Notes under the pieces: model-generated
Seen by the model: only the letters and a program-made list of their open reading frames with translations
What the model was told of the DNA's origin: nothing
The model's database searches: none
Part shown: positions 21,735 through 53,115 of the stretch, in pieces
How positions within the stretch are numbered: position 1 is the first letter of the stretch
Layout: every line of letters starts with the position of its first letter
Position numbers and translations under genes: made by a program
Assembly (NCBI GenBank): GCA_036785375.1
Contig: JAWMAR010000346.1
Coordinates: 1,984,001 to 2,048,000 of the forward strand
Direction of reading: 5' to 3'
Source: Leucoraja ocellata
Taxonomy: Eukaryota
Length of the DNA stretch: 64,000 nucleotides

Positions 21735-22440
21735 AGTCCCTGCTTCAACTATCTCCTCTGGCAGCTTGTTCCATACCCCCACCACCCCTTGTGTGAAAAA
21801 ATTACCCTTCGGATTTGTATTAAATCTTTTCCCCATCACCTTGAACCTATGTCCTCTGGTCCTCGATTCACCTACTCTGGGCAAGAGACTCTGTGCATCT
21901 ACCCAATCTTTCCTCTCAGGATTTTATACACCCCTATAAGATCACCCCTCATCCTCCTGTGCTCCAAGGAATAGAGTCCCAGCCTACTCAACCTCTCCTT
22001 ATAGCTCAGACCCTCCAGTACGGGCAACATAGAAACATAGAAAATAGGTGCAGGAGTAGGCCATTCGGCCCTTCGAGCCTGCACCGCCATTCAATATGGC
22101 CATGGCTGATCATCAAAGGATCATCCAATATCCTTGTAAATCTTCTCTGTAAATTTCTCTGTACGCAGATTGGTCTGAAGAGGGGTCTCGACCTGAAACG
22201 TCACCAATTCCTTCCTTCCAGAGATGCTGCCAGTCCTGCTGAGTTACTCCAGCATTTTTTGTCTATCTTCGGTGTAAACCAGCATCTGCAGTTCCTTCCT
22301 ACACACTCTGTACCCTTTCCAGCTTGACATCTTTCCTATAACATGGTGCCCAGAACTGAGCACAATACTCTAAATGCGGCCTCACCAATGTCTTATATAA
22401 CTGCAACATGACCTCCCAACTTCTATACTCAACTGACCTC
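21735..22440 (-). mobile_element. CR1 LINE 3' fragment with two nested insertions
   Basis: LEGLSYKERLSRLGLYSLEHRRMRGDLI and RTRGHRFKV...FFTQGVVGVWNKLP. Confidence 0.9.
22169..22208 (+). ncRNA. Type I minimal hammerhead ribozyme with complete helix I
   Basis: attggt-CTGAAGA-g-gggt-ctcg-acct-GAAA-cg-TC-accaat. Predicted cleavage after C22202. Confidence 0.7.
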
Positions 22441-24544
22441 CCAATTTCTAACCTTGCCCCGTTTCAAAGAAAGGTCACTGGCCTGAAAAGTGAATTCTGT
22501 TGTTTTTTTTTGTCTCCACAGATGCTGCCTGGCTTGCTGAATATATCCACTATTTCATGTTTAAATTTAGATTTCCAGAATCTGCAATGTTGTGCTTTAG
22601 GATTTCACACTGACTGTTCATCCTTCTTATTTAAAATGCAAATAAGAAGCATTACTATTTGATCGGTTACATGGCACTTAAAAATAACATAGAATTTTCT
22701 TCTGAGCCGTTGAAATTATTACAGGTCGAGTTAGTAAAACAAAGAACTGAAATTGTCTAAAACCCCATGTAACACCGAAGTGAAATAATGTTATGAACTT
22801 AATATCAAAATATTAATGGCCTGTCTTCGCAAAAGGAAATTACATATTGCTTGCTTTTTACATGAGTGATTTGGTGTTAATCAAACTGTCTGATGGACAT
22901 TTAATTAGTTCTATGTACAACTTGCTGCCACATTAAGCTACACACAATTTTGCTGCATAATAAATGGAAGAAAAAAAATCTCATGTGGAGCTTCTGAGGG
23001 CTTTAAACCATAAAGGAAACAGGTTTATATTATGTGTAGGAAGGAACTGCAGTTGCTGGTTTAAATCGAAGGTAGACACAAAAACCTGGAGTATCTCCAG
23101 ACTTCTGAAGAAGGGTCTCGACCCGAAACATCACCAATTCCTTCTCCCCAGAGATGCTGCCTGTCCCACTGAGTTAATCCAGCTTTTTGTGTCTATTTTC
23201 AGTTTTATGGAAATAGGAAATATGGATATGGAAATTCATTTCACTCGTCTTAATTCATCTGAAAATCAAAACACCCCACCGCATCTTTTAAATATGTAGT
23301 GATATGAAATTATTCATTTCTTAACCTAATATTTCATGTGTTCCAATTTCCTCAGTGGTCATGTTGGCAAACAGACTGCTGTTGAACATTTACGGTTGGT
23401 TCAAGAACATAGTTACACTACTACACCAGCCCTTGTCTTGGTGCCTTTGGACAATTTTGGACAAAGTCATTCGAAGATATGAAGCATGATTTCTATTTAG
23501 AACATTTCAATTTTATGATCACCCTCCCTGATATATTTGTTGCCATCTATTGTTGGCCGATTTAAAAAACGTCACAAAGTGCAGGAGTAACTAAAGGATC
23601 AGGCATCATATCCGGCAATATGTTTCCTAATCCGCTGAGTTACTTTAGCACTTTGGAAACCAGCATCTGCCATTCCTTGTGTCTACATTGTCTGATTCAT
23701 TTTCTGAAGAATTCCAGAACCATTGTACATTTAAACTGCTATATAAATGCAAACTATTTTTAGAAAATAGAGTATTTTATAGGTACATCATTTAGTTAAT
23801 GTGTGCTCATTTTGTACATGGTTTGAATTCAATTACCTGATCATTTTAAGAATAACATTGCAGTGGGATCTTGTTCCCAAGTAGTTCATTTGTTACAATA
23901 GTCGGTTGTCTTAATAAGAGCTAAAGTAAAAGATACTCATAATTTTTATTGACTTTTGGTAGTAATGTTATTATTGAAAAATAGGGGCATAATGATGTCA
24001 AAGAAATGTGTAGGTAAACGATCTTAACCTTGACATCTTATTAATTTCTGGCATAGATTGCAACCAATGTGTGTTGAATGCATTCTGAAATGAACCATTC
24101 ATCAGAACAATGGGTTGATCCTTACTAATACACAGCAGGAATACTAATAAAGAAATGAGAAGTAACCACTTATTTTGATTTATATCGGGGTGAATTGAGT
24201 GAATTAATTTGTTTCTTGTTTCGAGATGTTAATGAGCGGAATGGGTCATCTGGTTTTTTCCTCACACTTTCATGATAAAACAAATCTGACAGAGGAAAGG
24301 AGAAGATGCCTGCTCTTAAAAATAATGAGTGGAATGGACTTAGACTGAGTTCCACTGTAATCTCCCGGACTCCTTACAGTGGGATCTGTAGTGAAAGTAA
24401 GGACAGGCTTCCTCAATGTCCGTAGAAAGTCAAATTCTCAAGGATTTGCTCATCATAAAAAAATCTGACATATATTGCATTGATACATTTGCAAGGAATC
24501 ATATTCTATCTATACATTGAAGGCGATCAAAACCCTTCCAATTG

Positions 24545-28885: not shown

Positions 28886-29350
28886 GAATTGGTTACGGAG
28901 GAACTCCAGATGCTGGTTTACACCGAAGGTAGACACAAAATGCTGGAATAACTCAGTGAGACAGGCAACATCTTTGGATAGAAGGAATATGGGACATTTT
29001 GGGTCAAGACCCTTCTTCGGAGACTGGGGTCACCCATTCCTTCTATCCAGAGATGCTGTCTGAACTGAAGTGGAACAGGTTAAAGGATTTTCAGCAGAAA
29101 AGGAAAGTAGTATAAAGGTTATGATGGATGCTATTTAGTTAAACAAGGTAAGGCAGCTGAACAAAATGATGAGTGCATGTAATTGCAGGTAACATAGGAA
29201 CATAGAATGTGGAACTGTTAAGAGATTGGATACAGAGAGTGAAGGTAGAATCCTTCCATTTGCTGCAGGTAGACAAAAATGCTGGAGAAACTCAGCCGGT
29301 GAGGCAGCATCTATGGAGCAAAGGAACAGGTGACGTTTCGGGTCGAGACC

Positions 29351-29494
29351 CTTCTTCTTCTTCTTGCGTATGACGTGCACAGCCTAAAGTTGTAGGACAA
29401 CTTGTTCTATTTGATCTCATTTGATTGGGCACACCGGGTTGATTGCATTTGTCGAAACAGGGCGGACCACGTGAAGGTTGCTATCTCCCACCCC
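29351..29494 (-). mobile_element. Short non-tRNA retroposon with ribozyme head and CATACGCAA(GAA)n tail
   Basis: About 140 nt, starts GGGGTGGGAG, ends ...gcacgtcatacgcaagaagaagaagaag. No A/B boxes and no TSD visible. Confidence 0.7.
29441..29494 (-). ncRNA. Compact HDV/CPEB3-like self-cleaving ribozyme
   Basis: P1 GGGGTGG/CCGCCCT (G1-U), P2 GATAGCA/TGCAATC (one A-A mismatch), P3 ACC/GGT, L3 TTCACGT, GT after P1, vestigial P4, J4/2 CAAA. Confidence 0.75.
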
Positions 29495-29509
29495 AAGAGG
29501 AGTTGGAAT

Positions 29510-30060
29510 GTTAGGAGTTGGAATGTTACAGTCACACAAAACATTGGTTAGGCAGCACTAAGAATATTGCATGCAGTTCTGGTTGCAGTGCTGGAGAATG
29601 GATTTGATTGTGCTGGAGTGGGTGCAGAAAAAGTTCCCCAAAGGGGGGCTTGAGTTACGAGGAGAGATTGGATAGTCTGGAGTTATTTACCTTGGAGCAA
29701 AGGAGGCTAAGGGTTTATATAATTATGAAGGGAATAGATATGGTAGATAGTCACAGTATTTTATCCAAAGTAGAGTAGTGTAAAACTAGAATGACAAGTT
29801 TTCTAGTGAAAGGAGAAAGTTGTAACAGGAATCTGCGGTACATTTTCACACAGAGATCGGTATATGGAACACACTGCTAGAGGGAGGTAGAGGTACACCA
29901 TTTTAGAGACATTTGGATGGGTACAAATAGAAAATGTTTAGATGGGTATGGGTCAAATGCAAGTAAATAGGATTAGCGTAGATAGGTATCTTGCCAACAT
30001 GGGTGATTTGGGCTGAAAGGCCTGTTTCTGATCTGTGTAACTCAATGAATCTATGAATCT
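29510..30060 (+). mobile_element. Old CR1 3' fragment
   Basis: LVRQH*EYCMQFW and LSYEERLDSLELFTLEQRRL remnants, CR1 UTR. Confidence 0.75.
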
Positions 30061-32600: not shown

Positions 32601-32693
32601 TGAACACCACTTACAATCTGAATTAAAATGGCCCTTCTCCGAAAGCTGCTTCCTTTCTCTTTAGCTCAGTGTATGGACACATTCAAATAATAA

Positions 32694-33707
32694 AACAGAA
32701 CCTGTCCTCCACTATCACTCTGAGCACCGGCACACCACAGGACTGTGTACTGAGCCCCATGCTCTACTCCCTCTTCACACACGACTGTGGTCCTGCATTC
32801 GACACCAACACCATCGTCAAGTTCGCAGACGGCACAACTGTGATCGGGCTGATCACCTGCGGTGGTGAAACAGACTACAGAGCGGTGGTGCAGAACCTGG
32901 GGGACTGGTGCTCACATAACAACTTGTCCCTGAACACCTCCAAGACCAAGGAGCTGATTATCGACTTCAGGAGGACACAAAATGGAGAACATGCCCCAAT
33001 CTCCATCTACGGGGACAGTGTGGAGAGAGTGTCCAGCTTTAGGTTACTGGGCACACACATTTCGGAGGACCTCACATGGTCCACCAACACCGCTGCGCTG
33101 GTCAAGAAGGCACAGCAACGACTGTTCTTCCTAAGAACATTGAAAAAGACTGGTCTGCCCCAACAGCTGCTGACAACCTTCTACCGCTACACCACACAGA
33201 GAGCATATTAACGTATGGCATCTCTGTGTGGTATCTCAGCTGCACGGAGGCGGAGAGGAGAGCTCTTCAGCGCGTCGTCCACAGAGCGCAGAGGATCATT
33301 GGGACAGAGCTACCAGCCTTGGAGGGCATCTACCACACACGGTGCCTCAGGAAGGACGTCAGCATCCACAAAGACTCCTCACACCCTTGTAATAGCCTGT
33401 TCGAACTACTTCCCTCCGGCAGACGTTACAAGGCCTTCTACGCCCACACCTCCAGACTCAGGAACAGCTTCATCCCCAGAGCTATCGCTGCTCTGAACTG
33501 GCCCTGCTGAATGGCCCACCCCCATGAACTGGATTTACTCACGTCGACCTGGCACAGACATATTTGTACTTTAGACTGTTTTACTGTACTTTTTTATAAA
33601 ACATGTTTCTCGGCGTATTTAAATATTATTAGTTGTTTAAGTTCTGAACATCGGATGGAAGCTGCATAGCAAATCTCGTTGCACCTATGTGCAGTGGCAA
33701 TAAAATA

Positions 33708-52154: not shown

Positions 52155-53115
52155 ATTCCTCTTTCTACGCTGGAGTACCAGGATGAGGTGTTCCAAACCA
52201 GGGCATCAGAGATGTCCTCATTCTTTAGGGAACGGGGGTTCCCCTCTTCGACTATAGATGAGGCTTTCACCAGGGTCTCTTCTATACCCCGTAACTCTGT
52301 TCTCACTCCCCATCCCCCTACTCGTAACAAGGGCAGAGTCCCCATTCTCCTCACCTTCCACCCTACCAGCCGTCACATACAACAGATAATCCTCTGACAT
52401 TTTCGCCACCTCCAACGTGATCCCACCACTGGCCACATCTTCCCACCTCTTCCGCTGTTGGCTTTCCGCAGAGGCCGCTCCTTCCGTAACTCCCTGGTCA
52501 ATTCGTACCATCCCACACAAACCACCTCCTCCCCGGCACTTTCCCTGGCAACCGCAGGAAATGCTACACTTGTCGCTTTATCTCCCCCCCTTGACTCCAT
52601 CCATTCTTTCCAGGTGCGGCAGAGGTTCACCCCGCACCTCCTCCAACCTCACCTATTACATCCGCTGCTCTAGGTGTCAGTTGCTCTACATCGGTGAGAC
52701 CAAGCGTAGGCTTGGCGATCGCTTCGCCCAACACCTCCGCTCGGTTCGCAATAACCAACCTGATCTCCCGGTGGCTCAGCACTTCAACTCCCCCTCCCAT
52801 TCCGAATCCAACCTTTCTGTCCTGGGCCTCCTCCATGGCCAGAGTGAGTCTCACCGTAAATTGGAGGAGCAGCACCTCATATTTCGCTTGGGTAGTTCAA
52901 GCTCCCCAGCTGTATGAACATTGACTTCCAATTTCAGGTAATCCTTGCTTTCTTCCTCTTTCCCCTCCCATTCCCAGCTCTCCCACAGCCCACTGTCTCT
53001 GCCTTCCTTTCTTCTTCCCACCCCCCCCTCCCCCCATCCCCAAAACATCACCCATTCCTTCGCTCCACAGGTGCTACCTCACCCGCTGAGTTTCTCCAGC
53101 ATTTTTGTCTACCTT
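52155..53115 (+). mobile_element. Penelope-like element 3' half with GIY-YIG endonuclease (disrupted)
   Basis: SSNLTYYIRCSRCQLLYIGETKRRLGDRFAQHLRSV...PVAQHFNSPSH...KLEEQHLIFRLG, with stops and frameshifts upstream. Confidence 0.93.

Follow-up and report, generated by a model that had tools for sequence, protein, structure and literature searches.

Structure of the element and its surroundings

The window, a stretch of 64,000 nt of Leucoraja ocellata DNA, contains on its minus strand a 144-nt element (29494–29351) that consists of a 129-nt body and an (AAG)5 tail, with G29494 as base 1; this copy has no target-site duplication (TSD). The original prediction of a ribozyme-headed element of ~140 nt on this strand holds, and the sequence from 29494 to 29351 is as it described. 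The ~75 nt that it treated as a spacer behind the fold do have this length; they are not featureless, being made up of LINE 5′UTR, a 13-nt linker, last codons, and a 3′UTR. Nucleotides 1–81 (29414–29494, minus strand) are a piece of the 5′UTR of a LINE, here termed family H, and stop before its ORF. The linker (29401–29413) fills the gap between the two LINE matches at the deletion junction and mostly repeats the bases preceding it, and the following piece (29366–29400) comes from the 3′ end of the LINE, comprising its last codons, the stop codon at 29386–29384, and a short 3′UTR ending in CATACGC. The (AAG)5 tail occupies 29351–29365 and overlaps the start of a neighboring repeat. On the 5′ side, a 16-bp direct repeat adjoins the element at 29500–29530, inside a decayed LINE fragment.

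The neighboring repeat (29267–29357, minus strand) lies outside the element and represents its insertion target. It is an abundant sequence of ~90 nt with a minimal-hammerhead-like core, found in ~40 further places of the window (including 6033–5942, 14416–14326, 22177–22268, and 23107–23195), and four window copies fit the pattern of the minimal hammerhead core. Such cores are described for Penelope-like elements in the available text of PMC4209133. A composite of the element and the hammerhead-like repeat was considered and rejected: it has only five matches genome-wide, three of which are junctions of the element that differ in their left flanks, and one of these has a normal TSD. The hammerhead-like repeat is instead a recurrent target of the element. 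While no TSD was found at the flanks of the window copy, another copy (L517) has a normal TSD at the same target; the window copy was therefore probably inserted at a GAAG site and lost the left side of its target. A later deletion may alternatively have removed the TSD. A scan of 51 of the 55 long ORFs in the window for a host gene returned only two retroelement remnants, an RT fragment with an ALKBH8_N-type C terminus (32627–33208, plus strand) and a weak GIY-YIG match (52390–52914, plus strand).

The element is an internally deleted LINE

No tRNA gene was detected in the element by ARAGORN, and no Rfam family reached its gathering score anywhere in the 64-kb window, with merely six weak and unrelated chance matches, far under the cut-offs, between 28900 and 30000. 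Likewise, a B-box-like motif had no match inside the one copy scanned (L051). These searches bear out the expected lack of a Pol III promoter and of any tRNA, 5S, or 7SL likeness. Pol III SINEs have an RNA-gene-derived head with A and B boxes, whereas the head of the element is a LINE 5′UTR. Because it shares nt 1–81 and 95–141 with the ~3-kb LINE family H, the element is, judging from its sequence, an internally deleted LINE of the SIDE/RIME/NARTc type and no Pol III SINE. Both of its ends come from one autonomous LINE whose interior has been deleted, it has no ORF, and its copies are independent insertions with a TSD of 7 to 15 bp and a tail. It had been called SINE-like; the label of an internally deleted LINE suits it better than that of a SINE.

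Predicted ribozyme fold

An HDV-type descriptor (a 7-bp P1 starting with G·U, P3, L3, G, C-N-R-A, and P2) matched the window once, at 29494–29441, and had one match in 30 shuffled 64-kb windows. Together with column counts in aligned copies, this match delineates a predicted minimal HDV-like ribozyme at 29441–29494 (minus strand, nt 1–54) whose cut would fall immediately 5′ of G29494. The nested double pseudoknot of P1, P1.1, P2, and P3 can be formed, with a purine–pyrimidine pair at the cut site; the numbering P1 to P4 follows the usual convention. The 5′ strand of P1 (29488–29494, nt 1–7) pairs with 29459–29465 (nt 30–36) and places a G1·U wobble at the cut site, and that of P2 (29479–29485, nt 10–16) pairs with 29441–29447 (nt 48–54). 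P3 (ACC and GGT, nt 17–19 and 27–29) encloses L3 (TTCACGT, nt 20–26) at 29466–29478, P1.1 is reduced to a single pair between C22 of L3 and G37 (G29458), and P4 (29452–29457) is a vestige in which one U–A pair closes a UUCG loop. The predicted catalytic C (C44, C29451), to which this role is given by analogy, is the first base of the J4/2 segment C-N-A-A and is kept in 21 of the 24 copies aligned. The near absence of P4 may lower the activity of such a ribozyme.

The window copy is slightly damaged. An A at 29482, where all 24 aligned copies have T, creates an A·A mismatch in P2, and CpG decay is seen beside the intact C44. All core features are retained in 6 of 26 copies located through their tails; L093 and L094 are examples of intact copies. 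Minimum free energy folding of the element gave a z score of −1.4, a value uninformative for a pseudoknot.

Copy number, 5′ ends, and target sites

In the genome assembly of 3.44 Gb, a 30-mer from the head had 3155 exact matches and a 25-mer from the tail had 3428, with none for the reversed controls; these counts contradict a single-copy sequence, which the original prediction had named as speaking against it. As 16 of 78 head sites coincide with the 92 tail sites on contigs C1–C3, we estimate ~17,000 to 18,000 copies in the assembly, a rough figure in which near-duplicate regions are counted. Ranking by BLAST score is misleading, since 25 of the 30 top loci share both flanks; we therefore sampled by position, taking the first 30 loci from the head search and the first 30 from the tail search. 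These yielded 25 and 26 distinct sites, respectively, and ~15% of the positionally sampled sites are near-duplicates. The tail-anchored set is unbiased for the head.

TSDs were found at 23 of the 25 head-search sites and 22 of the 26 tail-search sites, versus 8 of 60 for a null of mismatched flanks. Their called lengths range from 7 to 19 bp, mostly 10 to 13 bp, the targets often begin with AG/GAAG, and the copies carry a (GAA)n tail. Among the tail-anchored copies, 17 of the 22 TSDs end no more than 1 nt from G1; 16 of the 26 copies align from G1 and 22 from nt 1–4, two start at nt 11–12 (one of which was split by an insertion that came afterward), and the remaining two are strongly truncated. 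No sequence common to the copies was seen 5′ of G1 at the sampled sites. Thus, the uniform 5′ ends at the first ribozyme base and the TSDs that had been proposed as checks are both present, and the extension of copies 5′ beyond G29494 that would have counted against the proposal was not seen. The median non-CpG divergence of 24 copies from one consensus is 4.6%, with some copies merely 0 to 2% away.

The 25 loci with shared flanks (L002, L003, L006–L027, and L029) belong to a dispersed repeat of at least 3 kb, 92 to 96% identical, that carries one copy of the element in 75 places. This repeat is likely a DNA transposon; a coding fragment in it looks THAP-like by eye. An insertion of ~1.1 kb, likely a short DNA transposon, splits one copy of the element (L041/L098), and a similar start lies near L061 and L062. 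At L133, an inverted near-complete copy abuts a tail remnant, possibly through inversion during integration. The stretch or part of it is contained in 20 public sequencing runs (10 studies, six organisms), and in the four of these runs examined many contig pieces end at 29494–29495. Contigs of two runs, which we guess to be of RNA, cover the element and are uninformative on strand, start, and level.

The parent is a Vingi-like LINE

Pattern searches for a LINE that has the head or tail of the element (30, 12, and 30 loci read) returned mutated or interrupted elements and one family H 3′ fragment (L124). A search with PF14529 led to Nimb-type elements in 38 of 38 loci read, and a metagenome scan gave one chance match. 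The parent was reached through an RT motif with 112 matches in several LINE families, and then through the endonuclease of one of these, family A, with 150 scored sites, of which 40 outside family A were read. Five of the 40 (L376, L378, L379, L396, and L398) share the ends of the element and constitute family H, so that the partner LINE with both ends in common that the original prediction called for does exist. Nucleotides 1–81 recur at 81 to 85% in three of these loci (L396, L378, and L398), nt 95–141 or part of them at 87 to 89% in four, and L378 has both ends together with a TSD around the LINE. In the genome, 61 candidates for the family H 5′ region and 979 for its 3′ end were counted, and 29 of the 30 3′ ends read run on into the terminal sequence of the element. 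Only family H shares both the head and the 47-nt 3′ end, and it displaced family G, which had been considered as the partner.

Family H is a decayed LINE of ~3 kb with a single ORF for an endonuclease and an RT. The ORF starts ~110 nt from base 1, which leaves no room for an ORF1, and is frameshifted in all five copies read through; no intact family H copy was seen. Pfam searches of 11 family H segments detected the endonuclease and RT and no RNase H, whereas the Nimb control has RNase H. The best of 80 database relatives is an intact protein of 1019 aa (P0001, 67%) that aligns along the whole LINE, has no RNase H among its precomputed domains, and ends in the C-terminal codons that the element retains. 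A compact single ORF with an APE endonuclease and RT and without RNase H is the architecture of Vingi, which lacks RNase H, unlike Ingi, according to the accessible part of PMC13708176. In an unrooted RT tree, which had no reference Vingi, Ingi, or RTE proteins and from which the CR1 and Rex rows dropped out, family H lies among RNase H-less families (43 to 53% identical) and apart from Nimb (support 1.0), and one family near it is Vingi-2_Gav-like at its 5′ end. Given this architecture (PMC13708176) and the likeness of two further families, I and M, to nt 2–74 of Vingi-2_Gav in the available sections of PMC5786205, the parent appears to be a Vingi-like LINE. Of the Vingi/Ingi or RTE enzyme envisaged earlier, the Vingi-like partner is retained and RTE is dropped; mobilization in trans by its protein would fit the shared ends and the overlapping ages. 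The age ranges of element and parent overlap: against the 4.6% of the element, the median non-CpG divergence is 5.4% for 16 family H 5′ regions (four exceed 14% and are probably misaligned) and 3.6%, which is biased low, for the 26 top-scoring 3′ ends. Several positions distinguish the main subfamily of the element from family H.

The genome is home to about ten Vingi-like LINE families (L224–L302, L303–L332, and L363–L402). Family A is young, with copies ~97% identical; an 11-nt word in its 3′UTR (L225–L251) equals nt 8–18 of typical element heads (29487–29477 in the window), probably by chance. For family G, 1512 candidate 3′ ends were counted and no 5′ end turned up; family J has an A/T-rich tail in place of GAA. 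A protein annotated from eel (P0028) matches family H with 75% identity across 41% of the query, hinting at a possible horizontal transfer between fish lineages. The genome also holds young and abundant Nimb-like two-ORF LINEs of the I group (L173–L210) with open frames of 1246 to 1268 aa and RNase H.

A putative helix between the two ends

In the predicted fold of the element, nt ~59–69 pair with nt ~114–124. In the window, the 5′ strand of this predicted helix lies at 29426–29435 (minus strand) and pairs with 29372–29381, and two changes weaken it in this copy. When the 60 nt after the ribozyme were paired with the 45 nt before the tail (one copy per family, windows chosen post hoc, family J left out), the best 5′–3′ helix was 7 to 9 bp long and ended 8 to 15 nt before the tail in six of seven Vingi-like families. 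Cognate end pairs did better than permuted ones, at p = 0.001 for energy and p = 0.046 for helix length. In addition, 24 of 29 counted copies of the element have a G where family H has an A, which adds one pair. The pattern is suggestive of an end-to-end helix shared by Vingi-like families.

HDV-like heads of Vingi-like families and the CPEB3 ribozyme

Upstream of Vingi-like endonucleases, the strict descriptor found a match in 14 of the 40 regions, compared with 0 of 240 flank windows. The matches belong to four families that differ in the sequences of P1, P2, and P3, so the HDV-like pairs are kept by different sequences. Of 600 Nimb windows, 28 had a match as well, probably at a single site that recurs among near-identical copies. 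By eye, partial or looser fits were seen in families A, B, K, and M; the heads of family A (L274–L294) have P1 and P3 and no clear catalytic C before P2, and may be inactive or folded differently.

When 14 loci were searched with Rfam, four heads of families I and M (L364, L365, L370, and L377) reached 64, 59, 56, and 46 bits with RF00622, the model of the CPEB3 ribozyme (cut-off, 35), and one M, two J, and one K head stayed under the cut-offs. The heads of the element and of family H matched no Rfam HDV-like ribozyme model, RF00622 included. Genome-wide, 56 of 59 scored sites lie above the RF00622 cut-off (sites L463–L512 among those read), and a Vingi-type ORF follows in 17 of the first 30, two of which were read in the wrong orientation, and in 2 of a further 20. 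An older group of heads (L493–L495 and L497–L502) closely matches the P1 and P4 stems of RF00622, and two of these (L495 and L502) run on, by eye, into a Vingi-like C-terminal fragment. Like the heads described here, the CPEB3 ribozyme has a one-pair P1.1 and the same L3; however, it is single-copy, intronic, and conserved, and the element's own head falls below its model.

We think it likely that Vingi retrotransposons as a rule start with an HDV-like ribozyme, that the element carries a natural P4-less version present in ~10⁴ copies in an animal genome, and that the mammalian CPEB3 ribozyme is a domesticated Vingi 5′ end: most of the core of RF00622 is matched base for base by Vingi-like heads, and the older family shares P4 as well. 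The CPEB3 ribozyme has been reported as not detected outside mammals. Its ancestral reconstruction was limited by missing outgroups, as stated in the accessible text of PMC8233481; the match found here supplies such outgroups and makes the origin of the CPEB3 ribozyme testable.

Proposed mechanism and alternatives

With a probability of roughly three in four, we propose that the element, in which the first 81 and the last ~50 bases of a Vingi-like LINE from this genome are joined, has a head that self-cleaves at base 1 from a longer host transcript, and that the freed RNA is copied by the enzyme of that LINE. A copy would be transcribed by read-through from an upstream host promoter, and the double pseudoknot would cut 5′ of G1 and then may shield the uncapped end. 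The piece of 5′UTR behind the ribozyme would pair with the piece of 3′UTR before the tail and present a handle to the Vingi protein, which would explain why both LINE ends have been retained. The family H protein, acting in trans, would nick a GAAG-like target, where the tail would pair and prime reverse transcription, and at ~140 nt most copies would be completed to base 1. As no intact family H copy was seen, the element family is probably no longer moving.

Uniform 5′ ends would equally fit transcription that starts at base 1. The 81-nt head could be an internal Pol II promoter with its start at or near this base, as is Pr77 of L1Tc/NARTc, in which case the pseudoknot would serve as end protection or a protein handle and cleavage would be dispensable. 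Pr77 is both promoter and ribozyme in the available sections of PMC4035085, a dispersed LINE requires some reliable transcription, and the vestigial P4 fits this view as well. However, in four sequence-divergent families P1 starts at the element boundary and C-N-A-A precedes P2, a promoter has no need of a catalytic C, and several heads of sister families fit the model of an active ribozyme family; we regard a promoter with dispensable cleavage as unlikely. It is also improbable, in our judgment, that the element, after arising from family H, owed its main burst to a different Vingi-like LINE, for instance family G (tail CATTCGCAAGAAG) or the younger family A. The terminus of family G, with its 1512 candidate 3′ ends, is one base off that of the element, family A copies are ~97% identical, no intact family H copy was seen, and some element copies lie 0 to 2% from consensus; yet the head and the 47-nt 3′ end are found together only in family H, whose divergence overlaps that of the element.

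We give very little credence to spread at the DNA level, with the element as a passenger of a larger repeat or duplication and the fold incidental. The flanks shared over up to 3 kb by 25 of the 30 best-scoring loci and the ~15% of near-duplicates would be accounted for in this way, but the shared host site makes up 75 of the 3155 head matches and has a 12-bp TSD itself, and the two positional samples of 30 loci each comprise 25 and 26 distinct sites, the majority of them flanked by a TSD of their own. If release by the ribozyme and copying by a Vingi enzyme are what happened, Vingi would join the LINE clades with 5′ ribozymes, and minimal P4-less HDV-like ribozymes would gain a role in an animal. 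The predicted RNA-cutting motifs number in the thousands, roughly one in four being intact in the sample, and could cut host pre-mRNAs. The element would also define a natural minimum of ~130 nt for a template of the Vingi enzyme, with a ribozyme, an end-joining helix, and a GAA tail; Vingi proteins are under development as gene-insertion tools whose templates carry the Vingi UTRs on both sides (PMC13708176, in the part available).

Relation to known systems

The literature searched, including that on sharks and skates, held no description of the element, of a Vingi ribozyme, or of a CPEB3–Vingi link; Repbase, Dfam, SINEBase, patents, and some papers lay outside the search. The architecture as such is already known from NARTc/RIME and R2 SIDEs. 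Of the vertebrate example proposed originally, the multicopy nonautonomous retroposon with a predicted ribozyme head is supported; short Vingi derivatives of vertebrates had already been reported, as Vingi-1_EE in the accessible parts of PMC5786205. The hedgehog Vingi-1_EE derivatives and the Vingi-derived parts of SINE2-1_ACar and SINE2-1_AMi are likewise bipartite, and nt 2–74 of Vingi-2_Gav have the same L3 as the element and closely resemble families I and M (PMC5786205, same parts). The minimal HDV-like ribozymes drz-Mtgn-1 and theta, in the available text of bioRxiv 10.1101/2023.06.13.544163, have the same double pseudoknot without P4 and a catalytic C as the first base of J4/2; they occur in metagenomes and gut phages next to tRNAs, whereas the fold described here heads a high-copy animal retroposon.

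The R2 SIDEs and R2/R1 hybrid SIDEs of Drosophila likewise combine a ribozyme and a 3′ end through internal deletion and are mobilized in trans there, according to the accessible part of PMC3414825; however, they are rare and specific to rDNA, whereas the element is dispersed, APE-type, and present in ~10⁴ copies. NARTc and RIME, the trypanosome derivatives of L1Tc/ingi with a Pr77 head, also join an HDV-like ribozyme at base 1 to a LINE 3′ end without an ORF, and share TSDs of ~12 bp and an Ingi-related driver (PMC4035085 and PMC6765202, in the sections available). In contrast to them, the element described here has an animal host, a driver without RNase H, a (GAA)n tail, and a one-pair P4 in a ribozyme that is predicted.
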